This document shows, one piece after another, positions 128 to 60,131 of a DNA stretch of 60,131 nt. Positions within the stretch are counted from its first letter, which is position 1; every line of letters begins with the position of its first letter. Location: IMG/VR virus record IMGVR_UViG_3300030058_000001; one strand, written 5' to 3'. The notes under the pieces are model-generated. The model searched no databases. It was not told the origin of the DNA and was given only the letters and a program-made list of their open reading frames with translations. A program made the translations under genes and the position numbers. The stretch comes from a virus.

Positions 128-323
128 GACGGTCGAACTCACGGGCTGCATCCGCACGTCCACTTCGATGTGGGCCGACCCTGGCCACTACCACTGGTTG
201 CTGCGCAACCCCCGCCGTCTTGAACATCCCATCAGTCGAAGAGGCGCGCAAGGTCTCTACGCCGTCTCCCTCTTGCTGCCAGCTACGCCGCCAGAAACTC
301 CTGAGCTTCCGCTCTTTCCATAG
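1..323 (+). CDS. ASCH-domain protein, C-terminal part. The gene is cut by the linearisation point; the N-terminal part is 59920..60131 and bases 1-127 are duplicated.
   Basis: The frame of ORF 60..323 stays open back across the junction. The joined product reads ...HWAEAIFALGKDVENRTWGTPYRGLLAIHAG..., an ASCH/PUA-like signature. Confidence 0.55.
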   Translation, partial: NRTWGTPYRGLLAIHAGAQVDADICGTLLLNPHRLRRSAIIGTVELTGCIRTSTSMWADPGHYHWLLRNPRRLEHPISRRGAQGLYAVSLLLPATPPETPELPLFP

Positions 324-27486: not shown

Positions 27487-27711
27487 ATGGCGACTTATGC
27501 ATCGGTTACAACTCTGAGCCGAGATGGCCAGACGTTCGTTCGGGCCCTCGTGGTCTGCGCGAAGTGTCGAACCAGTCATCCGCTCGATATTCCCATCGCA
27601 GAGTGGCAGCGCTGGCAGTCTGGAGACTTGGCACAGAACGCGCTGACGTCACTCGACCCAGCCCAGCGCGAGCTGCTGATCAGCGCGGAATGTGTGGCAC
27701 TTGCTGGATGA
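27487..27711 (+). CDS. hypothetical protein
   Basis: 74-aa ORF directly upstream of int. Confidence 0.45.
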   Translation: MATYASVTTLSRDGQTFVRALVVCAKCRTSHPLDIPIAEWQRWQSGDLAQNALTSLDPAQRELLISAECVALAG

Positions 27712-27817
27712 AGCTCTTTCCGAACGAGTGACGGCGCGGAAGCCTTCTGTTTTCAAGCACGGCGCTGCCGGTGTGATAGTCTCGACAGGTTTCGAGACTA
27801 AGAGGGAGAACGAGGCA

Positions 27818-28975
27818 ATGAAACTGACTAAACGCAGCGAGATTTACCACTATGCTTTTATACGCGACGGTGTGCGATACAGGGGAACGACGGGCACGGG
27901 GAACAGAAAAACCGCCGAGGCAATCATGCTGGAGAAGATTGATTCGCTCGCGAAGGGGAGGGCCGGCATTGTCGAGCGGCGAGACGCGCCAACCTTCAAA
28001 TCCTCGATGGATGCCTTTCTTGCCTACTCCGCAAGTAAGCATGCCGGAACGCCATCAACTCACAAGCGAGCCGTCGTCAGCTCCGTCGCGTTGCTGAAAC
28101 ACTTCGATCCGCAGACGTCGCTCGGCAACATCAACGTCGCCGCCGTCGATCAGTTCAAAGTTGCGCGCCTGAACGACTTCGCGACCGCACGTGGTAAGGG
28201 CCCGAACTCGCGTAAGAAGACAAAACGAAAGATCTGCCCCGCGACCGTGAATCGTGAGTTGGCTCTGTTGCGCATGGTCTTCAACTTCGCGCTTCGTGAC
28301 GACACCATCTTGCTCAGAACTCCGTTTCACAAAAATGGCGTCGAGTTTCTCGATGAGGACGACGACACCTTTCGCGTGATGACGTATCAGGAGTGTGAGC
28401 GGTATCTTGCGAACGCAACGCCCACTCTTTATGACGTCGCCTCGCTGATCTTGGAGACGGGGATGCGGCCGGGCGAGGTCTGCGCGATGGAGCCGCGGCA
28501 TCTTCATCTCGACCAGACGCACCCGGATCAGAGCTTCTACAAGGTGACGAAGGGCAAGACGAAAGCCGCGCGCAGAAAAGTGTCGCTGACGGCGCGAGCC
28601 TTCGCCATTCTGACCGCGCGGCTGGCTCACTGTAACGGCAGATTTCTCTTTCCCCACGAGCTGGACTCAGACAAGCCCATGCCGAAGATCAACAACGCGC
28701 ATGATCGCGCCCGCAAGGCGGCGAACATTGGCTACTTCCGGCTCTACGATTTTCGCCACACCTGGGCGACGCGATGCACCGAGGCCGGCGTCGACGCCGT
28801 GACTCTGGCGGCGAAGCTGGGACACTCCAAGCTGACGATGGTCTTACGCTACGCCCACCCGGGCCAGGAGCATCAGAACGAAGCGACGGCGAAGCTCGAA
28901 AAGTATCAGGCGCCCCGTCAGGCGGCCGCCCAACTCGCGCAGCTCAGCGAGATGAAAAACCAAACGATTCAGTGA
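27818..28975 (+). CDS. int: tyrosine recombinase / phage integrase
   Basis: C-terminal catalytic region ...LYDFRHTWATRCTEAGVDAVTLAAKLGHSKLTMVLRYAHP (R...H-x-x-R...Y). Start set to ATG 27818 (MKLTKRSEIYHYAF...) with GAGG upstream. Confidence 0.9.
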   Translation: MKLTKRSEIYHYAFIRDGVRYRGTTGTGNRKTAEAIMLEKIDSLAKGRAGIVERRDAPTFKSSMDAFLAYSASKHAGTPSTHKRAVVSSVALLKHFDPQTSLGNINVAAVDQFKVARLNDFATARGKGPNSRKKTKRKICPATVNRELALLRMVFNFALRDDTILLRTPFHKNGVEFLDEDDDTFRVMTYQECERYLANATPTLYDVASLILETGMRPGEVCAMEPRHLHLDQTHPDQSFYKVTKGKTKAARRKVSLTARAFAILTARLAHCNGRFLFPHELDSDKPMPKINNAHDRARKAANIGYFRLYDFRHTWATRCTEAGVDAVTLAAKLGHSKLTMVLRYAHPGQEHQNEATAKLEKYQAPRQAAAQLAQLSEMKNQTIQ

Positions 28976-44702: not shown

Positions 44703-47700
44703 TTACCGCCTAGCCGGAACGCGCTTGTCGTGCTCGGCGCCTGCCTGAAGCGACCTATTGATCGCGGAGCCGTGCGCCGCAATGATTGCCTGTCGCGTGC
44801 GCTGTTCTGTCAATGCGGGATCAGTGCCGCGCGCGTCGATGGTGTAATAGGCCGCGGCTCCGGTTGACTCGGATAACATACGCTGTGACCCTGCGTTGCT
44901 TGTGATGTTTCCGGACGCGCCCGACATGATTTCCGGTCCCTGCTCGCCAACAAGATATGCGCTGTCGGGTGACATCGCACCGCCTGAAGCGTGCGGGATT
45001 AGGCTGCCGAGAAGACCTGCAAATAATTTGTTTAACCCGCCGCCACCGCTCCCGCTGTCATCGTCGCCATCGCCGCCGCCACTACCTTCGCCAAGATTGC
45101 CAACGTCACCGCCTGGGCCGCTGCCAAAACCGCCGTCTGCCATCTTCACGTAGAACGGGCTGTTCTTCGAGCCGTCAGCCTTGCCAGCAACCGCGTCGCC
45201 CAGGATGCCACTCATCCCCTTGCCGAGCACACCGCTCTTTGCAAGAGCGCCGAGGCCTCTCTGCATGCCCGACTTGAGCGACGAGTCGAGCATCTCCTTG
45301 CCGATATCCTTAAACATCTTTCCGAAGTCTGCCTTACCCCCCGTGATTAGCGATGTCAGGTTGGTGGAGAGCTTTGTAAAGGTTGAGTTCAGCGCGTCGT
45401 AAATAATCTTTGAAGCCGTCTCTGCCTGCTTCTCCATGTTAAGAAAGAATGCATCCACGCCTGCCATTGCGCTGTCTTGGCGCAAGAGATCGTCAACCGT
45501 TCGGTCGACCATCTTGTTGAATAACTCTTGCTGCCGTGCGTTCACCTCCATCTGTTCTCCGTAACTCAGCGCAGTGCCGCGAAGCGTTACGAGAGCAGCT
45601 TCCGCGTGGTTTAGCGCGTCTAGCTCGCGAACGTACTGCTCATAGGGCGACAGTAACGTGAGAGCTTCTTTCGCGTCTGCTTCTGCATACTCCGCATTGG
45701 TAAGCGCAACCACCGCGGCACGTTCATTCATGAGCCCTTTCCTCATCGCTTCAGGCGCATCCGCTATTTGTTTATCCAGCGCGACCAGCTTCGCCGCCTG
45801 CGCCGCGGCTCGCTGCGCGTCGATGCTTCCCAACGTTGCGGCGGTCACGAGCTGCCGCGCCGTCAGCTCCTGCTTCATGCCAATCACGTTGGCGGCAATC
45901 TCCTCGTTCTCCTTCGCCAGTCCAGCACGATAGAGATCCGCCGAACGAGCGAGTATCTGATCCAGAGTCGCGCCCTTCGAGCGCAGCTCGTTCCAGGCTT
46001 CATCGAGCGCACTCTGCCGCGCAACAGCATCGCTGCCTTTGTTCATGGCTGCGATCATCAAACCGGATTGGCTTATGCTCAGCGCGGTCGCGCGCGATCC
46101 CACGCCGATGATGTCGTTTAGCTTCGCCTTAGCGTCGTTGTCAGAGAGCTGCGCATTGTCCTGGCGAATGATGGCCTGCGTCGCAGCGTCGACCAAAGAC
46201 ACATAGTCCTTCGTCTGGTTGTGAGTCGCCTTGGCAATCTCCTGGCCCAGCTTCATGATCTCGTTGCTGGCCTTGTTTTGCGCGGCAACCTTTCGCTGCG
46301 CCTCTTCTTCCAAGCCGGATGCGGCGACCACTTGTGCGGACTCGGCAACCTTCTCCTGAAGATCCGCCAGGAGCCTGCTCGTCGGATCGTCCGTCGTCTG
46401 CTTACCCAGGCCGGAGGTATCTGCTGGTGGCAGCGCCGGCTTAGCTCCAGGCGTCGGCGCAACCCCCGTGGTCGCTCCTTTTGCTTCACGCTCGGCCTTC
46501 GCTTGGTCCAAAGCGTTGATGGCCCACTTCGGCGCGAGCTGTCCGAGAATACCGGCTGCCCACGTAAGAGCTTCGCCGAACCATTTCTTGAACAGCGCGA
46601 CGATGGCCGACCCGGCGAACCACGCCATGAAGCTGGTCCACGCGCCGCGCATGACGTTCACGAGCTTCATGAACTCCCCGCCAACCCAGGACAGTGCTTT
46701 GCCCATGACGATCCAGGCGGCATTCCAGATGTCACGGATTTGGTATGTCGTGCCCGCGAGGCTAAAGACGCTGTTTCGGAACTTGAACAGCACCAGGCCT
46801 AACGCCGCGATAGCGCCGATTGTCAGGGTTACCGGTCCCAGCACAGTGGCGAAGGCGCCGCCGAGTACGTAGCTCGCCGCGGCCGCGATGCCTTCCTCCG
46901 ACGCCAGCATAGCCACGAATCGCGCTGTATAGCTTGCCCAACTAGCGAACGCGGTGAGCTGTGGCAGAACCCGACCAAGACCCAAAAGGCTGACCGCGAG
47001 CCGGGCGACTCCCGCACCAGCTTTCTCGATTCCGCCGCCGGCAAGATCTGCGATAAGCGGTATCGCGATCTTGCCCAGTTGGATCGCGACGAGCGCCTCG
47101 AGCGCAATCTTTAGGGCGTGCGCATGAGCTACCGCAAACCCCAGGGCGTCGCCCATGAAGCGAATCGCCGTTGTGACGCCACCGCCGAACGTCTTGGCCA
47201 AGTCCTGAAGATTGCCCGCGCTCGCAAGCTGAACCAGTTTGCTGAGCAGCTCTTCCAGCGCCGGTAGCGTCGCCGCCATCAGAGAGAAGCCCATCCCTTC
47301 GAAGACGGCTTTTAGCTTCTCCAGATCGTCATGAGCCTTGACCGCGACCTCACCCGTTGAGGTTGACAGCACCAGCCCGAAGCGATGCGCTTCGTCGTTG
47401 ATCTCAGCCTGTTTGCGCCCGTACTCGTCAAGCATCGGGATCATTGCAGCGCCGCCCCTACCGAAGAGCGCCATCGCAAGCGCAGTCTTCCCGGCGCCGT
47501 CCGCCATGTGCGCGAACTTGATTGACACGTCCTGCATCATTAGGCCGGAGTCCCTGAGCTTCCCGTTGCTGTCCAGGTAGGTGACGCCAAGCCTGCTGAA
47601 GATGTGTTCGAGCTGGACGTTTCCGTTCTGCGCCTTGAAGGCGGATTGACTCAGCTTCTCCAGCCCTTTGGTGACGGTCTCCAGCGACGTTCCGTTGAGC

Positions 47701-47984
47701 TTCGCAGCATAGTTTAGCTCCGACATGCGCTCTGTCGTTGTGCCAGCTGCCTGGGCCGCCTTGGTCAGTGCAAAGGCCGAGTCGATAGAACTCTTGATCA
47801 GCGCCGCGGTGCCGGTGGCAATAGCTGCTGCCATCGCGACTCCCGCGACGGCCATCTTCTCAAGGGATCGTTTGATGTCGTTCGCAGTCTTCGCTGAGAG
47901 CTGCGACATTTTGTCCATCGATTTTGAGAAGGAGGCAGTGTTTGCCTGAAGATCGATGGTCAACGTACCAATAACAACGCTCAT
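44703..47984 (-). CDS. tail tape measure protein
   Basis: 1093 aa, helical Ala/Leu/Lys-rich with hydrophobic central segments and a Gly-rich C-terminus. Follows the chaperone pair. Confidence 0.85.
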   Translation of the reverse strand: MSVVIGTLTIDLQANTASFSKSMDKMSQLSAKTANDIKRSLEKMAVAGVAMAAAIATGTAALIKSSIDSAFALTKAAQAAGTTTERMSELNYAAKLNGTSLETVTKGLEKLSQSAFKAQNGNVQLEHIFSRLGVTYLDSNGKLRDSGLMMQDVSIKFAHMADGAGKTALAMALFGRGGAAMIPMLDEYGRKQAEINDEAHRFGLVLSTSTGEVAVKAHDDLEKLKAVFEGMGFSLMAATLPALEELLSKLVQLASAGNLQDLAKTFGGGVTTAIRFMGDALGFAVAHAHALKIALEALVAIQLGKIAIPLIADLAGGGIEKAGAGVARLAVSLLGLGRVLPQLTAFASWASYTARFVAMLASEEGIAAAASYVLGGAFATVLGPVTLTIGAIAALGLVLFKFRNSVFSLAGTTYQIRDIWNAAWIVMGKALSWVGGEFMKLVNVMRGAWTSFMAWFAGSAIVALFKKWFGEALTWAAGILGQLAPKWAINALDQAKAEREAKGATTGVAPTPGAKPALPPADTSGLGKQTTDDPTSRLLADLQEKVAESAQVVAASGLEEEAQRKVAAQNKASNEIMKLGQEIAKATHNQTKDYVSLVDAATQAIIRQDNAQLSDNDAKAKLNDIIGVGSRATALSISQSGLMIAAMNKGSDAVARQSALDEAWNELRSKGATLDQILARSADLYRAGLAKENEEIAANVIGMKQELTARQLVTAATLGSIDAQRAAAQAAKLVALDKQIADAPEAMRKGLMNERAAVVALTNAEYAEADAKEALTLLSPYEQYVRELDALNHAEAALVTLRGTALSYGEQMEVNARQQELFNKMVDRTVDDLLRQDSAMAGVDAFFLNMEKQAETASKIIYDALNSTFTKLSTNLTSLITGGKADFGKMFKDIGKEMLDSSLKSGMQRGLGALAKSGVLGKGMSGILGDAVAGKADGSKNSPFYVKMADGGFGSGPGGDVGNLGEGSGGGDGDDDSGSGGGGLNKLFAGLLGSLIPHASGGAMSPDSAYLVGEQGPEIMSGASGNITSNAGSQRMLSESTGAAAYYTIDARGTDPALTEQRTRQAIIAAHGSAINRSLQAGAEHDKRVPARR

Positions 47985-48671: not shown

Positions 48672-49121
48672 TTAAACGACAGTTTCGGTAACAGTGCCGG
48701 TCATCTCGATGGTCATCGTGAACTCACTCAGCTTGCTCGGTTCATATGGACCGTTGTCATACTTCGAGATAAATCCTTCGCCAGACAGCGTGTAGACTTG
48801 AGTGCCCGAGTTAATAGGCGCGGTGATCTTGAATGGAAATACGGAGCGGCTTTCCGCCATGCTGAGGATGCTGAGCTGCGTCGTGTCCCCGATAAAGTTG
48901 CCGCTCATCTCAACGGTCCCAGGCTTTATCAGTCCAGGCAGTTTTTCCTCAGTAGCGTTGGGACTCTGAAGATGTGTTGCGTCAATCGACGGTATGCTCG
49001 CGATGCTGGGCTTGATGCTCTTAACTTCCGCCATCTGCACATAAGACAGCGGGCTAACGGCAGGGTTGGCAATCGAGAACGTTGCAAGATAGCCAATGGA
49101 TGCTTTGGTCGATGTGGTCAT
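48672..49121 (-). CDS. major tail protein
   Basis: 149 aa from ATG 49121 (MTTSTKASIGYLATF...). Position upstream of the chaperones. Resembles TP901-1/GTA g9-type tube proteins. Confidence 0.65.
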   Translation of the reverse strand: MTTSTKASIGYLATFSIANPAVSPLSYVQMAEVKSIKPSIASIPSIDATHLQSPNATEEKLPGLIKPGTVEMSGNFIGDTTQLSILSMAESRSVFPFKITAPINSGTQVYTLSGEGFISKYDNGPYEPSKLSEFTMTIEMTGTVTETVV

Positions 49122-49162
49122 GGCGGTTTTAGGTCTCCGTGGGTGACGTGTGGTTGGGCAAT

Positions 49163-49189
49163 AAAAAAGGCCGCTCAACCGAGCGACCT
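49163..49189 (-). terminator. Rho-independent terminator candidate within the late block
   Basis: Minus strand: GGTCGCTC-ggtt-GAGCGGCC followed by TTTTTT. Confidence 0.5.
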
Positions 49190-49217: not shown

Positions 49218-49610
49218 CTAGTCTGACCAGATCAGATACTCGAGCATTCGCCGGAAGCTCCTGCTGCCGGTATCAAAAAAGTCCAGAGTGTTTGTATGAA
49301 AGCAGCCTTGCACCACGGTTGCATCGGGATCCGTGAGCGTGCCCCTGTAGCCGCTTGCAACAAGGTCGATGGCCTTGGCCAATGAGATTGCGTCTGCGGC
49401 CGTGCTTCCGTAGCAGTCAACCTGTATTCGGCGCGGCGCGAGTGTTTCTGGACCGCTCAGAAGATAATCAGTGGGATCTGAAACAACAGCATAGGTCCAT
49501 GTCGGCAATACGAAGTCCGGTGGCAACTGGGCGTTAAACCCGCCTGTCGCAGCTATCGCGCTGACGCCGGCGTCACCCTGGACAAGCTCCACGAATCCTT
49601 GTTCAATCAT
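49218..49610 (-). CDS. tail completion / head-tail joining protein (DUF3168-like)
   Basis: 130 aa. Position after the gp10-like gene. Confidence 0.5.
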   Translation of the reverse strand: MIEQGFVELVQGDAGVSAIAATGGFNAQLPPDFVLPTWTYAVVSDPTDYLLSGPETLAPRRIQVDCYGSTAADAISLAKAIDLVASGYRGTLTDPDATVVQGCFHTNTLDFFDTGSRSFRRMLEYLIWSD

Positions 49611-50044
49611 GATTTTAGTGAATCGACACCTTGGCGCATCACCGCGGTGAAGGCATCCAGCGCTGCCCGATTTGACTCGTCGAAGCCTGGACGCATGAAA
49701 GGTTGCTTGTCGCCGTGCACGGAGCCGAACTCTACAAAAAGGCCGTATAGACCTGGAGACTGGCTACCATCCTCTTTCTTGTATTCAGGACCGATTAGTG
49801 CATAACCTTTTTCTTCCTTGGCCGAGAGTTTGATCTTTGAATGTATTGAGTCGCGAAGCTCGCCAGGCTCGCGCTGTGGCGTGCCCTCCTTGAGCACTGG
49901 GGCTAGCGCCTTTACTGCCGCAACCATAGTATCCGCGCCAGCATTCAGGCCAGCACGCAGAGCACGCTTGGCGAGCTTCGGACCGGCATCCCGGAGTGCA
50001 CCCTCTACACCTTCGAGGTCTAGAACGTTTACAGTGATGTCCAC
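49607..50044 (-). CDS. HK97 gp10-family head-tail joining protein
   Basis: LAKRALRAGLNAGADTMVAAVKALAPV...GELRDSI pattern. Confidence 0.6.
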   Translation of the reverse strand: MDITVNVLDLEGVEGALRDAGPKLAKRALRAGLNAGADTMVAAVKALAPVLKEGTPQREPGELRDSIHSKIKLSAKEEKGYALIGPEYKKEDGSQSPGLYGLFVEFGSVHGDKQPFMRPGFDESNRAALDAFTAVMRQGVDSLKS

Positions 50045-50415
50045 TACTGCGGCCGGGTGCTTCCTGCGCCCACGGGCTGCTCTGCTGCCGGCGCGCTCAC
50101 CTGTTGCAGGTTGATCGGACCGAATGTCTGTTCATACTGGGCCAGGTGCTGTCCGAGAAGATTCCACACGGCCTTCGCCTGTTGCGGACTGAGGTCGATG
50201 GCTTGAAAGACGTTCACGGTCAGATTATCAGCGGTCTGCGCGGTCCTGCCGAACTTGAGACGGAAGTCCCAGACACTCAACTTCACCTCAACGCTGTTGG
50301 CATAGCCCTCGCGATACTCCGGCGCGTTCACCTGTGAAACGGTCAGTTGCGAAGCCTTTGCGGGCCGCTCTACGACTTCAATCTGTCTCTTTGACTTCCC
50401 TTTCATTGTGCCCAT
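50044..50415 (-). CDS. hypothetical protein (DUF3467-like?)
   Basis: YANSVEVKLSVWDFRLKFG resembles the DUF3467 core. Confidence 0.4.
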   Translation of the reverse strand: MGTMKGKSKRQIEVVERPAKASQLTVSQVNAPEYREGYANSVEVKLSVWDFRLKFGRTAQTADNLTVNVFQAIDLSPQQAKAVWNLLGQHLAQYEQTFGPINLQQVSAPAAEQPVGAGSTRPQ

Positions 50416-50439: not shown

Positions 50440-50784
50440 TTATTGATTAAGCCCCATGGCGAGGCACGTCAACACTAGAATCACGTTGCGCTCGCCTGGG
50501 TTTTCGATTGCCTGAATGATATAGGTCTCGCCCATGTCGGATTGGATCCGCATGTTTGGCAGAATGCCGGTCTGCCAGCGAATCTTTATTGTCAGGTAAA
50601 CCTGGGTGACGTCCTGCCCAGCCTTGAGCATGTCAATCCCGCGCACAGGATCAATTGATGCCCAGGTGGTTAACCAAGGAGCCCACGTCATCACCGTGCC
50701 GGAGATATTCGTTCCCTTAACCTGCTGCAGGAACGTAATCTGGTGAACCATCTTGCCCGGATCAACCTTCGGCCACGACGACAT
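50440..50784 (-). CDS. head-tail adaptor (SPP1 gp16 / HK97 gp9-like head closure)
   Basis: 114 aa. ...WASIDPVRG...VTQVYLTIKIRW...YIIQAIENPGERN. Confidence 0.65.
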   Translation of the reverse strand: MSSWPKVDPGKMVHQITFLQQVKGTNISGTVMTWAPWLTTWASIDPVRGIDMLKAGQDVTQVYLTIKIRWQTGILPNMRIQSDMGETYIIQAIENPGERNVILVLTCLAMGLNQ

Positions 50785-50789
50785 CAGTT

Positions 50790-51494
50790 TTACCTCGCCC
50801 TAACGTTCGCGCCGTATGTGAGGCAGGACGTCACGGTGTACGGATATTCCTGCCCTGGGCCAGCACCCTTTTCAAACGGGAGCCGGTTGTTATACCACGC
50901 CGAGATCAGTAGCTTCATTCCGGTCTTAATGCGTGCCCCAGGGCCCTGCCAGAATGGATCGGTCAACGCATAGCCGCTGGTGAAGCGCACAAGGATTGCA
51001 GAGCTTGGCCATGGCGTGAACGTCGGCCAGGTTGCGTTATAGGGCGGCGCCAGGATGCCTGGACCCTTTGAGGCATCCACGATGTAGTCAACGTCCTCCA
51101 CCATTGCCGTGACGTCGCCGTTAGAGTCCGTGTACTGCACCAGATCAACGGACTGAAGCGGCTTGCGCATCTCAACCCGATACGACGGCCAATAGTCATG
51201 GCACAGGTCGAATTGCTTTTGCACGAGATCTTGGTTCTGAAGTATTTCCGCCTGCTCGCGAGCCGCAGAAATGAACTCCGTGAGTTGCGCATCCTCCTCT
51301 GGGTCGATTGGTGACCGCTGCGGTACCTTGAGAAACGACTTGATTTCATTAAGCGTGATCACCTCCGTGAAAACTTGCTGAGGAGACGTGACGGTTAGAT
51401 TGAGGCTGCCGTAGACGACGAGTGCCCCGTAGAGCCCGAGGTTCCCATAGGTTCCGTAAGGTCCAACCCCGCCGAATGGATACCAGCTACTCAT
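50790..51494 (-). CDS. gp6-like head-tail connector protein with an N-terminal Gly/Tyr-rich extension
   Basis: LNEIKSFLKV......DAQLTEFISAAREQAE pattern. Confidence 0.6.
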   Translation of the reverse strand: MSSWYPFGGVGPYGTYGNLGLYGALVVYGSLNLTVTSPQQVFTEVITLNEIKSFLKVPQRSPIDPEEDAQLTEFISAAREQAEILQNQDLVQKQFDLCHDYWPSYRVEMRKPLQSVDLVQYTDSNGDVTAMVEDVDYIVDASKGPGILAPPYNATWPTFTPWPSSAILVRFTSGYALTDPFWQGPGARIKTGMKLLISAWYNNRLPFEKGAGPGQEYPYTVTSCLTYGANVRAR

Positions 51495-52198
51495 AGCGTT
51501 ATGACCTCAAGCGGCCCGGCCCACTTGAAGGACGAGCTGGCCGGAAACAGATCGCCGATGACCATGTGGCGGTAACAGTCCTCGAACATATTGTTCGGGT
51601 CAACAGAGTTGTACCAGTGAAATTTCCTTACCCGATCTTCCTTGTGCAGGTAGCCGTAGTGCAGCAGCCTCACAGGGACAGATGTAACGCTGACCAGCAG
51701 CGAGGCCGGAGCCGACGAGCAATGAAAGTTCCCACCGAATCCTGTCCGCTTGAAGGACAGGTCACGGCTGACCAGGCGAAACATAGATGGTCGACGGAAC
51801 TCTTTGTACCAGCGGTCGACGCGCACCTGGGTCTCCATATCCCAGAGGTAGACGATGTGAAATGAAAGGCATGACAGCTTCTGACTCACGGCCCGTGCAA
51901 GCGCCGGCAGATCGTCCTGGTGCAGCGCCTCGTCGCCGTCAACCATGAGGCAGTAGTCACCAAGCGCAGCGCCACCCGCCCACACCTTGTCAAGCAGGTA
52001 ATCCTTATCCCGCGCCTCATGAATGTCTGTGAATGGAGAATCATTCACGACGCAGCCCAGCGCCCTGCAAAGATCCGGAGTTCCGTCGTTTGAGTGGTCA
52101 TCCAGCACGAACACGTCATCGCAGATAGCCTGAATGGATCGCACGACGCGTTCTATCCAGCGCGCCTCATTCTTGACCCGAAGCATCCCGTGAATCAT
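51491..52198 (-). CDS. family-2 glycosyltransferase
   Basis: MLRVKNEARWIERVVRSIQAICDDVFVLDDHSNDGT...MVDGDE (GT-A fold, DxD). Start at the ATGA overlap 52198. Confidence 0.7.
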   Translation of the reverse strand: MIHGMLRVKNEARWIERVVRSIQAICDDVFVLDDHSNDGTPDLCRALGCVVNDSPFTDIHEARDKDYLLDKVWAGGAALGDYCLMVDGDEALHQDDLPALARAVSQKLSCLSFHIVYLWDMETQVRVDRWYKEFRRPSMFRLVSRDLSFKRTGFGGNFHCSSAPASLLVSVTSVPVRLLHYGYLHKEDRVRKFHWYNSVDPNNMFEDCYRHMVIGDLFPASSSFKWAGPLEVITL

Positions 52199-52869
52199 GC
52201 GGGCACGCCCCACTTTTTGCAGTACAACTCCCAGTTCCGCGCATATGACCGCGACGCCAGCGGGTTGCCGCGGTAGCTGCTCGACAGGCTGGCGTGGTCG
52301 ACAAAGCACCCGTCATAGACGCCGCACTTCAGCCCCGCGCGCCTGACCATCTCGCAGTAGTCGCGGTCCTCGACGCCATAGTCCAGGCAGTAACGCTCAT
52401 CGAGCAGCCCAACGGCATTGATGGTGCTGCGTGGGATCAGAACGCAGACAAAGGCGAAGTGCGGCACCTCGCGCGGCCCGCCAGGACAATAGTGTCCTAG
52501 TGGTCTCTGAAGCGGCTGTCCCGTCACGTTGGTTACCGCTCCGATGATGCCGAACTCTGGACACTGTTTTGCCCACGCCTGCAGGGCAGAAAAACCACCG
52601 GCCGTCTCCAGGAGCGCGTCGTCATTGAGCAGAATTACATCGTTGTCGCCGGCTGAAATGATCCCCGTGTTGCAGTTTCTGGCGTAGATGAACTCCTGCT
52701 CTACCTCGCGGACGCGATAGGCGGCCGATGGGGGCGCCCAGTCGTTCCCACGGCTGCGATCCCACACCACGATGACGTCACACTCGTCCAGATGGGTTAC
52801 CGCCTGCACGCAGGGGATCAGGTTGGACATTGTGCGACTCGGGACGATGACTGACAGAGTGCTGTTCAT
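52195..52869 (-). CDS. family-2 glycosyltransferase
   Basis: LSVIVPSRTMSNLIPCVQAV...VILLNDDALL. Confidence 0.7.
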   Translation of the reverse strand: MNSTLSVIVPSRTMSNLIPCVQAVTHLDECDVIVVWDRSRGNDWAPPSAAYRVREVEQEFIYARNCNTGIISAGDNDVILLNDDALLETAGGFSALQAWAKQCPEFGIIGAVTNVTGQPLQRPLGHYCPGGPREVPHFAFVCVLIPRSTINAVGLLDERYCLDYGVEDRDYCEMVRRAGLKCGVYDGCFVDHASLSSSYRGNPLASRSYARNWELYCKKWGVPA

Positions 52870-52879
52870 TGGGCCAGGC

Positions 52880-53038
52880 TCAGATGATCCGAAGAAGCAG
52901 CAGGATCAAGACAATCACGACAATAAGGCTAAGACCGCCGCCGCCGTAGTAGCCAAGACCTGGGCCAAGACGATAGCCGCCAAAACCAAACACCAGCAGC
53001 AGGACGATAAGAACGATGATCACAGGTGAACCTCTCAT
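52880..53038 (-). CDS. 52-aa two-pass membrane protein (DUF3309-like), below the ORF-track cutoff
   Basis: Own translation: MRGSPVIIVLIVLLLVFGFGGYRLGPGLGYYGGGGLSLIVVIVLILLLLRII*. ATGA overlap with the stop of 53035..53622. Confidence 0.55.
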   Translation of the reverse strand: MRGSPVIIVLIVLLLVFGFGGYRLGPGLGYYGGGGLSLIVVIVLILLLLRII

Positions 53039-53622
53039 AGTGGTATCCAGTTGGCAGTGATGTGCCGTGGGCTTGTGTTGTTTGGGTGAATGGTGGCGTG
53101 CATCAGCTCGCCAGCATCGACGCTTAGAATGGCCCGCTCGCTGCGCGCCATGTTCACGAACACGTTATCTTCGCCAACGTTGCACGCCTTGAATGGATGC
53201 GCCTGCCACCAACTGCGCAGGTAGCAGAGCGAGGTTCCCAGGGCATAGTCGCTGGTGCCCTGATACCTCCACCAGCGGCCGCCATCGGTGAAGCGCATCG
53301 CGTTGTAGCCGGTGACTGCAATACCGTTTAGCCGCGGGATCTGATCGGCGAGTCGCCCAGGGGCGCTCCAGTCGTCATCATCCCAGTGACAGATCACGTC
53401 ACCCTGGGCGCGGCCGCAACCGAAGTTGCGCTTTTCCCCTATGGTGCGGACCTCGCTTAGATGGATTAAGCGAACGCGGTCATCGTCCGGCAGTAGGTCT
53501 CGAACGTCCTGGCCGTCCGCCAGAATAAGAAGTTCCGCCTGGGGATAGGTTTGCTTTTGGAAGCAGGCTATCGCTTTCGGTAGCCACGTTCGCCGGTTCC
53601 GCGTTAGACACAGGCACGTCAC
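53035..53622 (-). CDS. family-2 glycosyltransferase (GTG start)
   Basis: CLCLTRNRRTWLPKAIACFQKQTYPQAELLILADG...HWDDDDW. GGAG lies 8 nt upstream. Confidence 0.65.
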   Translation of the reverse strand: MTCLCLTRNRRTWLPKAIACFQKQTYPQAELLILADGQDVRDLLPDDDRVRLIHLSEVRTIGEKRNFGCGRAQGDVICHWDDDDWSAPGRLADQIPRLNGIAVTGYNAMRFTDGGRWWRYQGTSDYALGTSLCYLRSWWQAHPFKACNVGEDNVFVNMARSERAILSVDAGELMHATIHPNNTSPRHITANWIPL

Positions 53623-53845
53623 GAAACGGACTCCGCGGGCTCACCATAGGAGCTTGCGGGTTGATGACTTTTGTCTCGTACTCGATGGTCGGAGGTGCTG
53701 CTTGGCGAGCCATGCCGGTCTTGATTAGCTTGTGAGCCGTATCGTCGGCCACATCGAACTGCTGGTTCGCTTCAACCATGCCGTACTCGCCGCGCAGTTG
53801 ACTATTTGCAATGAGTCTCATCTGTTCCTCTGCCGTGCGCTTCAA
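53480..53845 (-). CDS. hypothetical protein downstream of the capsid gene. Its 3' end overlaps the glycosyltransferase gene by ~140 nt, so the true extent is uncertain.
   Basis: ORF track; alternative ATG at 53821. Confidence 0.3.
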   Translation of the reverse strand: MKRTAEEQMRLIANSQLRGEYGMVEANQQFDVADDTAHKLIKTGMARQAAPPTIEYETKVINPQAPMVSPRSPFRDVPVSNAEPANVATESDSLLPKANLSPGGTSYSGGRPGRSRPTAGR

Positions 53846-53885
53846 CAGCGGGGAAGCTGTTACGCCGCCCCGCCGTCTCAGCCGG

Positions 53886-55112
53886 TTAAGCTACTTGGCT
53901 TGGTGAAGAACTGAAGGTGCCGCTGACAAAGCTGTTGGGACGTTTGGTCAACAGCGCCATCCGTTTCTCAGCCCTGATCGCCACCAGGTTGCGAACAAAG
54001 TAATCAGCGTTCTCAGTCGAGATTTCCACTTGCATTTCCATGCGGTCGCGGATCTCGACTGCCACCTGATTGCCGTTGCCAACGAGAAACGTACCCTGCG
54101 CGATTGACGTGGTGTAAACCACATCAAGCCCGAAGAGGTTAGGTCGCACGTTGATTTGCGGGTCGCCCAGAATGTACCGGCCAAAAGAGTCTTTGGTCAA
54201 ACGGATGGTCCACCAGTCGTTCGTGTTGAGCACAACGAATGTCGGATCGATCTCCTTGGCCGCGTTGATCTGCTGGATAGCAGTTCCGATGACGTCCATG
54301 AAGTTCCAACCCCTGACTGAATTCAGGTACGTTGGAACATACGTGGATGCCTGCGGGATGAGACCGTGCAGATTTTCACCGGTATCATCACCTGCTAAAA
54401 GCTGAAGCTCTTCCTCCAAATTGATGTAGTACGGAAGGCTGGCCTTAATGAATCCCATCAGCTCAACAAAGTCGTCAAGCACCTGTTTTGTCGCCGGGAT
54501 CCAGGTTGCGATCAGCCTTACCTTTTCGCTGATCGAAGTGAAGGTGAGTTGGTTCTCCGGCTTGAGCGATGCCTCAGGAACGGGAGAGCCAGGGGAAAGC
54601 GGCTGACTAACTTTCACGAAATCCACCACCTGCATGGTGGTCGGTCGCGAGGGTAGCAAGTCCCGAATCATTAGGACTTGACGCGCCTCCGCCGTGATCC
54701 CTGAAGTGCGGTCGATTTGCAACACCCCGGTGGTTGCGACTCCAACTGGGTTAAGCGGATCGCCTTCAGAGGTGCCGGATACCGTTGCGCTGATGATTGA
54801 CTTCTTGTCCATCAGCTCCATGACATCCTTTCCCTTCAGGTGCAGAACGGCGCTGCCACGACGGTCCTTGAGCAGGCGTTGAATGCTCTCAGACTCCTTG
54901 ACGGTCTTGGCCAACGTTGGTCCCTGGCCCTGATCGGCAATGATCTTGTTCGCAAGCTTCAGATCGATCCCGTCTAGCTGGGCCTGAATCTTGGTTACGG
55001 TTTCTTTGGTTGACAGGGCCATGGTGCCAAATTCTTTTGTCTCAGCGGCAGCCTTGTCGACGTAGGTTTTCAGCTCTGTCTGCAGGGCAGTGAGCTGGTC
55101 TTTTAGTTCCAT
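53886..55112 (-). CDS. major capsid protein, HK97 family
   Basis: 408 aa with an N-terminal coiled-coil delta-like region (MELKDQLTALQTELKTYVDKAAAE). Follows the prohead protease. Confidence 0.85.
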   Translation of the reverse strand: MELKDQLTALQTELKTYVDKAAAETKEFGTMALSTKETVTKIQAQLDGIDLKLANKIIADQGQGPTLAKTVKESESIQRLLKDRRGSAVLHLKGKDVMELMDKKSIISATVSGTSEGDPLNPVGVATTGVLQIDRTSGITAEARQVLMIRDLLPSRPTTMQVVDFVKVSQPLSPGSPVPEASLKPENQLTFTSISEKVRLIATWIPATKQVLDDFVELMGFIKASLPYYINLEEELQLLAGDDTGENLHGLIPQASTYVPTYLNSVRGWNFMDVIGTAIQQINAAKEIDPTFVVLNTNDWWTIRLTKDSFGRYILGDPQINVRPNLFGLDVVYTTSIAQGTFLVGNGNQVAVEIRDRMEMQVEISTENADYFVRNLVAIRAEKRMALLTKRPNSFVSGTFSSSPSQVA

Positions 55113-55148: not shown

Positions 55149-56243
55149 TTACGCTTTCGGGATGAGCGCCCTCATGTTGGTGAGGATTGCTTCGGCTGCC
55201 GAGTGGTCTTCTGCTACCGGCTCGGGCTTGCTTTTCTTTGCGGCTTGCGATGCTGGAGTGCCGCCGCCCTTGTTACCGTCGTCGTCACCGTCAGTGTCGT
55301 TGGTGTCGTCTTCGGTATCGTCGGTATCGTCGTCGGCTTCATCATCGAAAAGTGCTCCGAAAATATCGGAGAGGCCCTTAACGTGTTCGTGGGCCTCGTC
55401 CAAACTCTTTTTGGTGGCCGCGCTAAACTTGCGGCCCTCCTTGCTCTCTAGCTTCCGGACGGCCGCGAACATCTTCACGCCGCGGCTCAGCATACGTGCA
55501 AAGCTTTTCTCTTCATGATGCAGCTTGTTCATCAGGCTCATATCGCCGTACTCAGCTGCCAAGTAGTCCAGATACTGTGGCAGATACTCCATGTAGGCGG
55601 CCAGGAACTGCTCGATGGTGGTCTGCGAAGCTGCCACCTTGTCCTCCTTCGTCAGGCCGCTTGCCCAGGTCACGGAGCCGAGCGCCTGGAACAATGCGTA
55701 GCGCATCTGGTAGCCGACGTCCTGAAGCTGAATTTGCGCAAGCTCCGTGGTGAAGTCATCTTTGGTTTCCGGTGCCCCGGCGCCGGCGCGCTTCACGGAT
55801 GTGATCATGGCCATTTCATTCATTGGGAACGTGACGATGCTGCCCTCCCAGAGCCGTACCTCTTTCAACATGCGGACGCCGTTCTCGACAGAATCCTTGA
55901 TGGTGTCGTAGCCAATCGACAGACCCTTGATGACCTTGGCCTTGATCAGGATGTATGCCTTCTTCGCGTCCGGCAGCTCCAGTAGTAACTGGCCCTTCAC
56001 CTTAAGGGCTGTCGGGCTGTCGATCAGAGTGAGAGAGCCGATTGGCGTGTCCGCGTTGTGCTGCCACAGCAGTGGCACCGTGCCGCCGCGTTCCTTCATC
56101 GTCTTGGCAAAGGCTCCGGGCTCGATTAGGTCGCCGCCCAGGTCAGTTTGGTTGTAGACTGCGAGGTCGCCTTCAAAGCTGCCGTCCTCGGCCATCGCCT
56201 TGATTTGTACCGGGATGGATCGCTTTTGCTGTTTAGCTGCCAT
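55149..56243 (-). CDS. HK97-family prohead protease with a C-terminal scaffold-like extension and an acidic tract
   Basis: GSFEGDLAVYNQTDLGGDLIEPGAF...VPLLWQHN. C-terminal DDEADDDTDDTEDDTNDTDGDDDG. Confidence 0.8.
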   Translation of the reverse strand: MAAKQQKRSIPVQIKAMAEDGSFEGDLAVYNQTDLGGDLIEPGAFAKTMKERGGTVPLLWQHNADTPIGSLTLIDSPTALKVKGQLLLELPDAKKAYILIKAKVIKGLSIGYDTIKDSVENGVRMLKEVRLWEGSIVTFPMNEMAMITSVKRAGAGAPETKDDFTTELAQIQLQDVGYQMRYALFQALGSVTWASGLTKEDKVAASQTTIEQFLAAYMEYLPQYLDYLAAEYGDMSLMNKLHHEEKSFARMLSRGVKMFAAVRKLESKEGRKFSAATKKSLDEAHEHVKGLSDIFGALFDDEADDDTDDTEDDTNDTDGDDDGNKGGGTPASQAAKKSKPEPVAEDHSAAEAILTNMRALIPKA

Positions 56244-56285: not shown

Positions 56286-57674
56286 TCACTCGCTGATGCG
56301 AACAAGCGATGGTGCTTGGCTTGCTGGTGCTGTGGCGGCTCCTGCTGCAGGCGGAACCGTCTGCATGTTGAGCTGAATGTAGTGACCGTCGCCGCCCTTG
56401 AACGGATTCCAGTCCTCGAGGTCGCGCACCTCGTTGTCGCTTGCGATACCGTTCTGAAGCATGATTGAGTAGCCCTGCATCCGGGTCAGGAAGTCGCCGC
56501 GTAAAAGCTCGTTAGTGTTGTGCTTGAAGTAGTAGCCCTGGCCCTTCTCTTCTGGCGTTAGGAGGCAGCGCCACAGGTCTTGCTCCCACCTGGTGAACCA
56601 CGATTGCATCGTGACCTTGATGAATTCCAAGGCAAGCTGCTCGATGTTGGAAAAGGTTGCGCGGCTCAGGTCACCAACCAGATGCGGGGACACCAGAAAC
56701 CAACGGCAGATTTCATGGATGTCGAATAGCCGGGTTTCGATCAACTGCGAATCGACTGCGTTCAGGCCGATCTGCTGATACTTGAGTCCGTTCTCGAGGA
56801 TGGGTACCTTATGCGGCTCGGCGTATGTCTTTTCCCAGTCAGCGCGGAACTTGTCAAAGGCGGCGTCATTCTCAAAGTGTTTGTCGTTGGTGAGCAGGTA
56901 CGGTATGCGTCCGCCGTTCGCGTAGAACCTGGCTACGTTGCGTTCTGCTGAGATGGCAGTCCCAATGCTCTGCCGGGCCATAGTGATGACGGAATATCCG
57001 CGCAACCCGTCCCACCCAAGCCCGCGGATGTGGAGGATGTCTTGCGCCTTCCCAGGGGTCAGAGCATACGTTGTTTCATTGTTCGTTGCGTTGCTGGTGA
57101 GCCCGTCCTTGATGATGTAGACCAGCCTGCGCTGGCCCGTCTTCTCGCGGTCCACGCGCACCTGGCCTGGGTCCAAGCCACGTAACTCAATGGCGGTGCC
57201 AGTGGCGCTGCGCCGGATGATCTGAGCGTATCCGTTGCCGTCAAGCAGCGTGTGACTGGTACGTGTCTCCTTGAAGCTCATCGCGGACATCTCGTCGTTG
57301 ACCGCGTTGCGCAGGGCCGAGAACATCGGGTGATCGGTTGCCAGCTCCTTTGCGTTCTTCTTCTGCTGGAGCATCGCGAGCGGCGTTGCGCCCTGGGTTT
57401 CGCTTATGAGCCTGTTGCATGCCCACACGACCGAATGGTTGAGCGCGGTCCCCAGGCTGACAGGCTCTCCCGACCAGGCTGGCATACCGCCAGAGAGCAT
57501 CGTGTAAATGCCCGGATATCCGTTGCGTGCGTACCAGCCAGCATTAACGGCGTCAAAGGAAACGCCGCCGCCGCTCTTGCGACCACTGATGTCCAGCTCC
57601 AGCGTTTCGTCGCCCATGCCGGCGCGCACCGCTTTGACGACACTCTTTACCGCGTCCGTGATGGCTGGGAACAC
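56286..57674 (-). CDS. portal protein, HK97 family
   Basis: 462 aa between the large terminase and the protease. Confidence 0.85.
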   Translation of the reverse strand: MFPAITDAVKSVVKAVRAGMGDETLELDISGRKSGGGVSFDAVNAGWYARNGYPGIYTMLSGGMPAWSGEPVSLGTALNHSVVWACNRLISETQGATPLAMLQQKKNAKELATDHPMFSALRNAVNDEMSAMSFKETRTSHTLLDGNGYAQIIRRSATGTAIELRGLDPGQVRVDREKTGQRRLVYIIKDGLTSNATNNETTYALTPGKAQDILHIRGLGWDGLRGYSVITMARQSIGTAISAERNVARFYANGGRIPYLLTNDKHFENDAAFDKFRADWEKTYAEPHKVPILENGLKYQQIGLNAVDSQLIETRLFDIHEICRWFLVSPHLVGDLSRATFSNIEQLALEFIKVTMQSWFTRWEQDLWRCLLTPEEKGQGYYFKHNTNELLRGDFLTRMQGYSIMLQNGIASDNEVRDLEDWNPFKGGDGHYIQLNMQTVPPAAGAATAPASQAPSLVRISE

Positions 57675-59369
57675 TTAGTTTAGGCTCCGGAGTCCGGTGT
57701 ATGGGATCGTGTCGGATTCGGCGACCAGGCCGCGGTTGAGAAGGGTCACAGTGGCCGCGAGTCCGTCGATGCGCTTGGATGACTTGAGGCGCTCGGGCTT
57801 CGATGGCTGGCAGTTATCCTTTCGGTCGTATTGAAGCTGCAGACAGGCAGCGTGCCAGTTGTAGATCGGGTTATTGCCGTGGCGGATTTTCTGGTCAAGG
57901 TAGGAGCTAAGAATGAACTTGGTAGGGTAACCCAACTGCATGAAGTTCTGTTGCACTTCCACCGCGTTGATGCCCTCGTCGAGGAGCTCCATCGCCTCGG
58001 TGCGAAAGTTGCAGCGGTCGAACGCCAGGTCGCGCAGCTCAAACATCTGCCTACCCCAGCGGATTCGCTCCTTGACCGCGCGGAGGTCGATACCGTTGCC
58101 CGGCGTGGCCTCAAGAAAGCCGCGGGCAATCCAGTCCGAGAACGGCAGACGGCAGATGCGCTCAAGCTCCGCGACCCGCTCTTGTGGCACCCAAAAGAAC
58201 GGTAGGAAGGTCCATGCAGCGAGTCCGCCGAACGGTGGAAAGCCGAACACGACCGCGGTCATATCGGTTGTCCATGACGCGTCAACGCCAACCCAGCACG
58301 GCTTGTCGAGCAGATTCCACTTTTTGATCAGATAGTCCACATCGTAGGTTGGCCACTCGCGCAGATCGACATCCCCTCCGCACGCGAGCCACTTGGACAT
58401 GTCGATGATGGGAGCCTGCTGCGTGGCAATGGGAGTGTTCAAATGGTAGCGAAGATATTTCGTCTTCTGAGCCGGCTGAGTCAACGCCTTGTCCATCTCG
58501 CGGACGATAGCGCTGTCCTTAAGAAACCCACCGTTGTCTTCGTGGCTGGGGTTTGCGGCGACGCGCGCCTCTCGTGATTTCCAATAGTTTGGATCCGCAT
58601 CGAGCTTTTTCTTGTCCGCTTCCCAGATCGCTGCATAGAAGCCAGGCACGGGGACGGCGCCGCTCAGCACCTGCTTAGCAAGCTCATACTCCTGAAACCA
58701 CAGCGGCGATTCGTACTCAGCGCCCGCTGTGGTGATTGCAAGGTCCAGCGGTTCGTCGCGAGATATCTGCCCCTTGGTCGTGACGTCGTACAGCGTCTCG
58801 GCCTTTGAACTCCTCCAGCGGTGCATCTCATCGCGAATCAGCAGGCTCGGCCTGATGCCGTCCTGCACGTCGCCATCCGCTGAGAGCACCTGATACATGC
58901 CGCCGCCATCACGCCGCACGATACGCTTGGTGCTGGGGATAACCTTCAGCCGCGAGCGAAGATCAGGGTTGGCGTTCACCAGCATGGCCGCTGCCTTGAA
59001 GACGATGCCGGCCTGCTCCTTGGCGGCCGCTGCGCCATAGGCTTCTGGGTTCAATTCGTCTTCCATGGTGATGTGATAGAGGGGCAACCCGCCCGTGAGA
59101 AACGATTTTCCATTCTGCTTACCTGTCGAGACGTAACCGCGCTGGTAGCGCCGCGCCCCGTCTTCCAGCCGCACGGTTCCGAAAATGTCTCGGATGACTT
59201 TTCTGTGCCAGCCGAGTAGGCGATACCCGAGCGGCGGATAAAGAATCTCTGAGTAGAAGCGTTCGACCTTGCAACCGCGGCACATCGGCTTGCCGTTGTC
59301 GCGCGTCTCGCACCACGTGTCGGCGCTGCACCAGAAACAAGTGGCTGGCTTGTACTCACGACTACCCAC
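57675..59369 (-). CDS. terL: terminase large subunit
   Basis: 564 aa. Walker-A-like TGKQNGKS. Adjacent to the P27-type small subunit and the portal. Confidence 0.85.
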   Translation of the reverse strand: MGSREYKPATCFWCSADTWCETRDNGKPMCRGCKVERFYSEILYPPLGYRLLGWHRKVIRDIFGTVRLEDGARRYQRGYVSTGKQNGKSFLTGGLPLYHITMEDELNPEAYGAAAAKEQAGIVFKAAAMLVNANPDLRSRLKVIPSTKRIVRRDGGGMYQVLSADGDVQDGIRPSLLIRDEMHRWRSSKAETLYDVTTKGQISRDEPLDLAITTAGAEYESPLWFQEYELAKQVLSGAVPVPGFYAAIWEADKKKLDADPNYWKSREARVAANPSHEDNGGFLKDSAIVREMDKALTQPAQKTKYLRYHLNTPIATQQAPIIDMSKWLACGGDVDLREWPTYDVDYLIKKWNLLDKPCWVGVDASWTTDMTAVVFGFPPFGGLAAWTFLPFFWVPQERVAELERICRLPFSDWIARGFLEATPGNGIDLRAVKERIRWGRQMFELRDLAFDRCNFRTEAMELLDEGINAVEVQQNFMQLGYPTKFILSSYLDQKIRHGNNPIYNWHAACLQLQYDRKDNCQPSKPERLKSSKRIDGLAATVTLLNRGLVAESDTIPYTGLRSLN

Positions 59370-59919: not shown

Positions 59920-60131
59920 GTGACAGGCACCGAAACACTCTGCAAATGCATCACGCTTCACGCGCACTGGGCCGAGGCCATCTTCGCTCTCGGCAAGGAT
60001 GTAGAGAACCGCACCTGGGGGACCCCGTACCGCGGCCTCCTGGCGATTCACGCTGGGGCACAGGTGGATGCCGACATCTGCGGAACGCTTCTGCTGAACC
60101 CGCATAGACTGAGACGCTCTGCCATTATTGG
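59920..60131 (+). CDS. ASCH-domain protein, N-terminal part (continues at 128..323 across the circular junction; ~135 aa in total); GTG start
   Basis: In-frame stop at 59902-59904, then GTG 59920. The translation ...KCITLHAHWAEAIFALGKDVENRTW... continues into ORF 60..323. Confidence 0.5.
   Translation, partial: MTGTETLCKCITLHAHWAEAIFALGKDVENRTWGTPYRGLLAIHAGAQVDADICGTLLLNPHRLRRSAII
60005..60131. repeat. Terminal direct repeat, copy 2 (identical to 1..127)
   Basis: Exact identity by eye. Confidence 0.95.

Follow-up and report, generated by a model that had tools for sequence, protein, structure and literature searches.

A conserved glycosyltransferase island in the head operon of an HK97-type phage lineage and a candidate acceptor tail on its capsid protein

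The viral DNA stretch recorded in IMG/VR as IMGVR_UViG_3300030058_000001 (60,131 nucleotides; hereafter the window) carries in its minus-strand late operon a cassette of three tandem glycosyltransferase (GT) genes, here called GT-A, GT-B and GT-C, which lie between the genes for the major capsid protein and the head-tail adaptor Ad1 (Table 1). The cassette is conserved in gene order across a deeply divergent phage lineage, and the capsid proteins encoded beside it almost always end in a short tail with a Ser-Pro (S-P) pair that is rare in relatives without the cassette. We propose that the three enzymes carry out late, cytoplasmic O-glycosylation of virion proteins, a reading that we regard as evenly poised between right and wrong. 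That the capsid C-terminal [S/T]-S-P tail is the specific acceptor is a further step, to which we give somewhat less than even credence.

Judged from their sequences, the three proteins are different soluble enzymes of the GT-A fold and glycosyltransferase family 2 (GT2), with intact DXD motifs. No transmembrane segment was found in any of them (Kyte-Doolittle maxima 0.6-1.75), and hhalign comparisons indicate that they are not close paralogues of each other. An earlier note on this DNA had recognized all three as GTs from short motifs. Profile searches bear this out for GT-A and GT-C, which match PF00535 (E 3e-14, 53.7 bits, and E 3e-9, 37.4 bits, respectively; Pfam gathering cut-off 23.3 bits); GT-C also matches PF13704 (Glyco_tranf_2_4; 4e-8). 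For GT-B, the assignment comes via its homologues and predicted fold only. The 494 homologues of GT-A are ~197 residues long and share a V/M-TCLCLT beginning, which fixes its start, and D81, D83, D84, E151 and D152 are invariant in their alignment. When run against the PDB, the GT-A profile retrieved heparosan synthase, GalT1, 9jma and SpsA, and on these matches GT-A appears to resemble GT2 enzymes that elongate glycans. The length of the 824 homologues of GT-C (~235 residues) confirms the ATG at 52198 as its start, and their alignment holds D33/D34, D87-G-D89-E90 and H180 invariant. Against the PDB, the GT-C profile finds the GT domain of Listeria GmaR first (5e-8) and then SunS and ThuS (2e-4). 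The AlphaFold2 model of GT-C (pLDDT 93.8) has 203 PDB matches at E<=1e-3, and the top six Foldseek matches are SunS and ThuS (E 1e-9, TM ~0.53); a fold search of BFVD gave generic viral GT-A-fold matches only. By two independent methods, GT-C stands nearest to enzymes that act directly on polypeptides, with moderate affinities.

GT-B itself has no match in Pfam, NCBIfam or PDB sequences, and a search of PDB sequences with the GT-B profile also found none. Many of its 842 database homologues nevertheless carry a precomputed PF00535 match. The family counts 384 cluster representatives (50% clusters) at E<=1e-30, and its alignment shows PS..N, ARNxN, LLNDDA and YGxED to be invariant, along with D83/D84 and D168. 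With an AlphaFold model of GT-B (pLDDT 88.7), Foldseek returned 540 PDB matches (best E 4e-10); the best folds are the catalytic domains of the polypeptide N-acetylgalactosamine (GalNAc) transferases GalNAc-T2, -T7 and -T1 (TM 0.74-0.76), and WrtF, a GT of bacterial glycans, nearly equals them in score. Some very large multi-domain proteins (P0473, 2766 aa; P0501, 1950 aa; P0439, 1506 aa; P0458, 1413 aa) also contain GT-B-like domains, with up to six or seven matched stretches, so the GT-B family extends beyond small phage proteins.

These affinities bear on a first alternative, in which the enzymes would place sugars on hypermodified phage bases and so protect the DNA from restriction, as happens in T-even phages and in others with hypermodified DNA. 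DNA-glycosylating GTs of phages are a familiar and varied group, as PMC12619734 reviews with reference to Pyle et al. 2024. The nearest solved relatives of the cassette enzymes, however, are GT-A-fold enzymes acting on proteins or glycans, with no DNA glucosyltransferases among them, and the cassette stands in the head module rather than the replication module. Moreover, Pfam/PHROGs scans of 30 larger open reading frames (ORFs) outside the late operon revealed no hydroxymethylase, thymidylate-synthase-like or other base-modification gene. DNA glycosylation is therefore extremely unlikely.

The earlier note described the cassette as inserted between capsid and connector genes; comparison with relatives shows that it is no one-off insertion. 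When the proteins of the window were mapped onto 235 fetched loci (L numbers below), a conserved order emerged of capsid, a small gene termed sm, GT-A, GT-B, 0-6 kb of extra genes, GT-C and adaptor. More than 100 uncultured viral contigs show this order, as do Acidobacteriota prophages, and it is kept from 77% to ~35% capsid identity. GT-B relatives are encoded in 139 IMG/VR stretches. Of 80 GT-B loci, 31 have a head gene on the upstream side as well as a downstream gene for a connector or tail protein; 27 show one side only, on short contigs, and 22 are too diverged for mapping. One sub-lineage has the adaptor gene between GT-A and GT-B, or ahead of GT-A. All named hosts belong to the Acidobacteriota (Acidobacteriaceae bacterium KBS 96, Ca. 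Sulfopaludibacter, Acidobacteriia metagenome-assembled genomes (MAGs) and a Pyrinomonadaceae MAG), and KBS 96, a strain in culture, has a prophage with the cassette (L090; KB906767.1, roughly 140.9-162.1 kb), whose capsid has the C-terminal sequence …GTFTTSP. The window itself is probably a phage of soil Acidobacteriota. Among GenBank phages, the late region found no match by megablast; in tblastn searches of 50,697 GenBank phage genomes, GT-A had none and GT-B and GT-C had just chance-level matches of 24-28%.

The cassette of the window is a minimal version of this island. A methyltransferase dependent on S-adenosylmethionine (SAM) is present in 44 loci, mostly between GT-A and GT-B, and the larger cassettes also contain further GT2s, a TOD1/MUCI70-like GT, an RmlD/epimerase-methyltransferase fusion, an FdtA/WxcM-like isomerase, a DegT aminotransferase, a PIG-L deacetylase and an FkbM methyltransferase. 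With methyltransferases and nucleotide-sugar-modifying enzymes in the relatives, an oligosaccharide product, which the earlier note had suggested from the number of GTs, is plausible. The same comparison speaks to the possibility that the three genes are auxiliary metabolic genes (AMGs) that serve host carbohydrate metabolism and have no role in the virion. Soil surveys do class viral GTs as carbon-cycling AMGs (PMC11924767, where 19/21 carbon-utilisation AMGs are GT2s; PMC11222151), but this classification rests on annotation rather than experiments. Three distinct GTs, translationally coupled and held in fixed order between capsid and adaptor across the whole lineage, together with sugar-tailoring enzymes typical for making a defined glycan, make a purely metabolic role very unlikely.

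The capsid protein points to a possible substrate. Its PF05065 match spans residues 133-400 of 408 and reaches the end of the profile (280/280), and the last eight residues, SSSPSQVA (53889-53912), lie past the end of this domain. In a capsid alignment of cassette-bearing relatives, S403 and P404 are nearly invariant. Among 110 non-redundant capsid proteins scored for S-P within the last 10 residues, the pair is found in 58/59 of those with the cassette directly downstream of the capsid gene, in 2/26 from cassette-less phages and prophages, HK97 included, and in 0/1 with the cassette after the adaptor gene. The single exception among the 59 does possess the motif, followed by an extension. A cassette-less clade (L094, L097, L101 and L195) that is nested among cassette-bearing phages has lost the motif too, and L052, which has a divergent capsid type (35% identity), has both cassette and motif. 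In a further locus (L014, ~1080-1130), a TAA codon falls exactly at the tail start (…GTFS-stop-SVSP-stop) and S-P is still encoded in frame beyond it; this codon could represent a recent truncation, a sequencing error or a read-through site.

The layout of the cassette agrees with the earlier note in most respects. All four ORFs that it had listed, namely the three GT genes and a 52-residue DUF3309 membrane protein, are present on the minus strand with the motifs HWDDDDW, VIVPSR/LLNDDALL, VLDDHSNDGT/DGDE and GYYGGGG. The proposed translational coupling is evident from ATGA stop/start overlaps at GT-A/DUF3309, GT-B/GT-C and GT-C/Ad1, and a gap of 10 nt separates DUF3309 from GT-B. The three GTs do interrupt an otherwise HK97-like head module, with the PF05065 capsid gene on one flank and the Ad1/Hc1 connector genes on the other: the capsid-to-adaptor spacing is 2.4 kb, whereas the HK97 annotation places the adaptor gene directly after the capsid gene. 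Relatives without the cassette (L094, L097, L195 and L213), a comparison already suggested in that note, have the capsid gene and then the adaptor gene, with just small sm-like ORFs between. The cassette does not, however, lie right after the capsid gene, as had been stated, because the conserved 113-residue sm gene stands between them. The GC content at third codon positions of the GT genes (0.70-0.76) is in line with that of neighbouring genes. Promoter-like and terminator-like sites in the cassette region are at shuffle level (2 vs 2.0 and 4 vs 4.4, respectively).

The longest ORF of sm begins at 53845, and its conservation lies in the N-terminal ~65 residues. In the window, sm and GT-A overlap by 143 nt in different frames (53480-53622, the first 47 codons of GT-A), and in 39/39 related loci the two genes likewise overlap, by 124-181 nt and always with the same relation between their frames; in L163 (4001-4813), an in-frame fusion joins the sm domain to GT-A. 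By its reading frame, GT-A overprints the tail of sm with its 5' end. We found no support for a programmed frameshift from sm into GT-A, which would need a +1 shift. Although sm always precedes GT-A, we also dropped it as a member of the cassette, since sm-like ORFs follow the capsid gene in GT-less relatives as well; sm is thus not cassette-specific, and the cassette sits between sm and the adaptor gene. The sm-like proteins (for example at L097:11214-11677, L094:1608-1913 and L104:11431-11547) have a recurring 'ETK(V)' motif (YETKVI in the window, 53650-53690), repeated two or three times in those of cassette-less relatives, and L097 has two tandem sm-like genes. Between the capsid stop codon and sm, the RNA can fold into a hairpin with a minimum free energy of -34.8 kcal/mol (z = -3.85; 0/200 shuffles as stable), and the HK97 annotation marks a putative terminator at the corresponding place. 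The hairpin may act as an attenuator or as an RNA-stabilising element, and may set the ratio of capsid to downstream expression.

The DUF3309 ORF had been counted as part of the cassette. It is real by Pfam score (PF11752, 27.9 bits against a cut-off of 22.3, with profile positions 3-50 of 50 covered), and its product has two hydrophobic helices round a Gly-rich turn (Kyte-Doolittle 19-residue maximum 2.93). It nonetheless lies outside the conserved cassette: tblastn found no match to it in the 235 related loci, and in close relatives GT-A abuts GT-B or is separated from it by a methyltransferase, so that DUF3309 is best viewed as a genome-specific accessory gene.

A membrane protein within the cassette would suit the alternative raised in the earlier note, an enzyme set that remodels a glycan of the host envelope (lipopolysaccharide, capsule or extracellular polysaccharide (EPS)) and thereby blocks superinfection, aids release or prevents re-adsorption to debris. 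The phage is temperate and encodes an integrase, soluble GT2s often build envelope glycans, and source annotations label homologues as 'O-antigen biosynthesis protein' or 'involved in cell wall biosynthesis'. Moreover, the nearest solved relatives of GT-A are GTs for polysaccharides and lipid-linked oligosaccharides, and the soil-virus literature takes such genes as morons or AMGs (PMC11924767). Against these points, DUF3309 is missing from the related loci, the GTs are without a membrane anchor, and the cassette forms part of the late head operon, with which it is ATGA-coupled; it lies ~23 kb away from the integrase gene and has no promoter or terminator of its own detectable above shuffle level. 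No GtrA-like flippase, Wzx/Wzy or initiating transferase is present in the cassette, and none of the 20 commonest accessory clusters of the relatives is a flippase, polymerase or initiating phosphoglycosyltransferase. The capsid-adjacent placement is also kept over very deep divergence, and the cassette co-varies with the capsid tail motif. Taken together, we consider envelope remodelling unlikely, though by no means negligible.

In the glycosylation scheme that we favour, the three GTs would be produced in the late phase alongside the head and connector proteins of the same minus-strand late operon, with which they are presumably co-transcribed, and the post-capsid hairpin may reduce their dosage. 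As soluble cytoplasmic enzymes of the GT-A fold, they would use host nucleotide-sugar pools. One of them would initiate O-glycosylation on Ser/Thr of a structural protein, with GT-C (GmaR/SunS-like) as the prime candidate and GT-B (polypeptide GalNAc-transferase-like) as the second; the remaining enzymes, GT-A among them, would then extend this first sugar to a short oligosaccharide. The likeliest acceptor would be the eight-residue C-terminal tail of the capsid protein, …GTF-SSSP-SQVA, outside the capsid fold. The outcome would be a glycan-coated capsid, from which the particle may benefit.

Several observations weigh against this scheme. The association of tail and cassette is confounded by phylogeny and comes down to only about three evolutionary events, namely a gain, a loss and a divergent lineage. 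HK97 gp5, from a phage without GTs, ends in the Ser-rich GTFSSGS; a Ser-rich tail alone is thus uninformative and the S-P part alone discriminates, and we narrowed the acceptor signature from a Ser-rich tail to S-P after this comparison. Phages with the cassette after the adaptor gene (L226, L230, L017, L060, L072 and L077) are without the tail, and hence a capsid-tail acceptor cannot be universal. The C-terminus of the tail tube protein (…TGTVTETVV) looks structured, with no comparable motif. With respect to the enzymes, the likeness of GT-C to protein GTs is moderate in fold and its profile match is confined to the nucleotide-binding half, and GalNAc-transferase entries are over-represented in the PDB, which raises their rank for GT-B. 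Soluble GT2s also build membrane lipid-linked glycans, and both substrate and site are wholly inferred.

Two of these observations, the Ser-rich tail of GT-less HK97 and the cassette-after-adaptor phages that have no capsid motif, would also fit a different protein target, be it tail fibres or other receptor-binding proteins, the portal or connector, sm, or a host protein, with the capsid motif a mere lineage marker. The resemblance of GT-B and GT-C to protein GTs agrees with such a target, and so do the in-frame fusion and the constant overlap of sm with GT-A. The persistence of sm-like genes in cassette-less relatives argues against sm, however, and the capsid-tail association, with its concordant loss in the nested cassette-less clade, argues for the capsid. 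In the known precedent, moreover, the capsid C-terminus is a target (PMC12619734). We judge a protein target other than the capsid to be distinctly unlikely.

The first and last 127 bases of the window are identical (1-127 = 60005-60131), and this exact direct terminal repeat indicates a circularly assembled complete genome of ~60.0 kb; related contigs measure 59-62 kb. The integrase gene of this temperate phage lies at 27692-28975, and Pfam/PHROGs scans of the window also revealed DnaB, PD-(D/E)XK nuclease, replication initiator and ParB-like genes. The late operon occupies the minus strand from ~59.4 kb down to 44.7 kb in HK97 gene order. Ad1 forms the downstream edge of the cassette and is followed by Hc1, and departures from the HK97 head-module order are limited to sm, the GT cassette and a DUF3467-family gene. 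The last of these is, by its distribution among the sequences compared, a second lineage-specific insertion, in the connector module; it was seen only in the contig of the closest relative (four fetched copies, L001/L002/L007/L084). Beside the terminase region, a 377-residue ORF (283-1416, minus strand) has a weak ABC-ATPase match and a GNAT acetyltransferase domain, and the closest relative (L001/L002) has the same gene in the same place. A 312-residue ORF in the early region (15612-16550) weakly matches an IS110-family transposase (PF02371) and may be an insertion-sequence remnant.

Table 1. Genes and other features of the late operon, in order of transcription (positions are those of the window)
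Feature	Position	Strand	Remarks
Large terminase	57675-59369	-	
Portal	56286-57674	-	
S78 protease	55149-56243	-	
Major capsid protein	53886-55112	-	408 aa, HK97 type; PF05065 E 2e-32; phrog_10 2e-54
RNA hairpin	53828-53890	-	Without U-tract; directly past capsid stop, ahead of sm ribosome-binding site
sm	53480-53821	-	113 aa; phrog_2616 1e-5; ATG preceded by GAGGAA
GT-A	53035-53622	-	195 aa; soluble GT2; HWDDDD as DXD motif, GED motif
DUF3309 membrane protein	52880-53038	-	52 aa; PF11752
GT-B	52195-52869	-	224 aa; soluble, GT-A fold; LLNDDA as DXD, YGVED motif
GT-C	51491-52198	-	235 aa; soluble GT2; LDDHS, DGDE, conserved His180
Head-tail adaptor Ad1	50790-51494	-	phrog_40 9e-11; PF05135 20.6 bits, slightly below cut-off
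Head closure Hc1	50440-50784	-	PF05521 3e-15
DUF3467-family gene	50044-50415		Between Hc1 and gp10-like genes
gp10-like	49607-50044	-	
Tail completion	49218-49610	-	
Tail tube	48672-49178	-	
Tape measure	44703-47984	-	

Acidobacteriaceae chromosomes also contain ~9-kb integrative elements that look like capsid-encoding phage satellites, for example L107:6422-15493 in Edaphobacter aggregans DSM 19364; similar loci are L085, L089, L091-L093, L095, L098-L100, L102, L103, L105-L110, L115 and L121, as well as L169, L171, L174, L187 and L196. Their genes encode an HTH/DnaD-like replication protein, a ParB-like protein, a phage-type capsid protein and then an S78 protease, in this unusual order, a 311-residue protein and an integrase; portal, terminase, tail and GT genes are all missing. 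In the capsid tree, these proteins are interleaved with those of phages; the S-P tail is present in 16/17, and several copies of the element occur per genome. In KBS 96, the capsid of the satellite-like L095 clusters with that of the co-resident cassette-bearing prophage L090. The capsid-then-protease loci had been considered as evidence against the tail as acceptor, and were dropped as such on being recognised as satellite-like elements; they are uninformative or mildly supportive. A wider proposal, which we advance tentatively and think more probably wrong than right, is that an Acidobacteriota phage lineage O-glycosylates its capsid at an encoded C-terminal [S/T]-S-P sequon by means of a conserved, expandable GT island that evolved independently of mycobacteriophages, and that the satellites keep the sequon and are glycosylated in trans by their helper.

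If this wider proposal is true, virion glycosylation would be common in soil phages, and many of the GT2 'carbon-cycling AMGs' of soil viromes would be particle-decoration genes; the present reading also questions the habit in soil viromics of assigning viral GT2 genes routinely to the carbon-cycle AMGs. The sole study demonstrating phage virion glycosylation is said to have found little evidence for the trait outside actinobacteriophages. A conserved, non-homologous cassette in the phages of an abundant soil phylum would mean that the trait arose repeatedly and is widespread. No description of the cassette was found in the searchable literature, and a paper on Acidobacteriota viruses lists GTs solely as morons or AMGs. 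Glycan coats could affect how particles persist, how they stick to soil or EPS matrices and how they escape recognition by the host. The present analysis supplies a concrete, testable sequon and candidate initiating enzymes, and the KBS 96 lysogen provides an experimental system in culture.

Known systems resemble the cassette in different respects. The Gtr modules (GtrA/GtrB/GtrX) of Shigella and Salmonella phages likewise join a temperate phage with a GT2-family enzyme. In contrast to them, the cassette lacks a GtrA flippase as well as any membrane-anchored GtrB-like or GT-C-fold enzyme, its sole membrane ORF is DUF3309, and it is located away from the integrase and attachment site, within the late operon. 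In the chlorovirus PBCV-1, several virus-encoded cytoplasmic GTs build an oligosaccharide on the virus's own capsid protein, Vp54, independently of host machinery. PBCV-1 differs in being a eukaryotic giant virus with atypical, N-linked glycans and unrelated capsid and GT families, and its enzymes are not among the top fold matches of GT-B or GT-C.

Among single enzymes, SunS and ThuS are S-glycosyltransferases of glycocin peptides. GmaR transfers N-acetylglucosamine to flagellin (PMC9638930). Like GT-C, all three are soluble enzymes of the GT-A fold, and they act on polypeptides in the cytoplasm; GT-C is without the tetratricopeptide repeat or substrate-binding C-terminal domains of GmaR and SunS, is only distantly related (~15% identity, TM 0.53) and has its own conserved C-terminal half (YLWD…RVDRWY…GGNFHCSS…LLHYGY). 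GT-B can be set beside the polypeptide GalNAc-transferases (family GT27), the initiators of mucin-type O-glycosylation, from which it differs in having no lectin domain and sharing 14% identity. Polypeptide GalNAc-transferases favour Ser/Thr near Pro, a preference that would fit the [S/T]-S-P tail.

In mycobacteriophages, the capsid and tail tube subunits are reported to carry O-glycans at their C-termini (Freeman et al. 2023, Cell Host Microbe, as cited in PMC11600133 and PMC12619734). The analogy with these phages drawn in the earlier note holds for the layout: the systems of Che8 and Corndog and that of the window each have two to three tandem GT-A-type GTs in or beside the structural operon. 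In Corndog, a TylF-like methyltransferase and three GTs (gp35-38) lie between portal and protease, and Che8 gp108-110 are three tandem GTs at the right genome end. A methyltransferase is often found in mycobacteriophage cassettes and also in cassettes of the window's relatives. The analogy does not extend to the enzymes themselves, for which tblastn of GenBank phages gave no mycobacteriophage match and hhalign probabilities against the Che8 and Corndog (gp36-38) GTs are 0.1-4%, save for a generic GT2 match of GT-A to Che8 gp108 (73.5%); since the enzymes are unrelated in sequence, the cassette does not belong to that family by common descent. Furthermore, the GTs of the window are inserted between sm and the adaptor gene, the hosts belong to the Gram-negative Acidobacteriota rather than the Actinobacteria, and the tail tube of the window has no candidate site. 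The proposed logic would thus be the same as in mycobacteriophages, with different enzymes, a different insertion point, another host phylum and a candidate sequon of its own.

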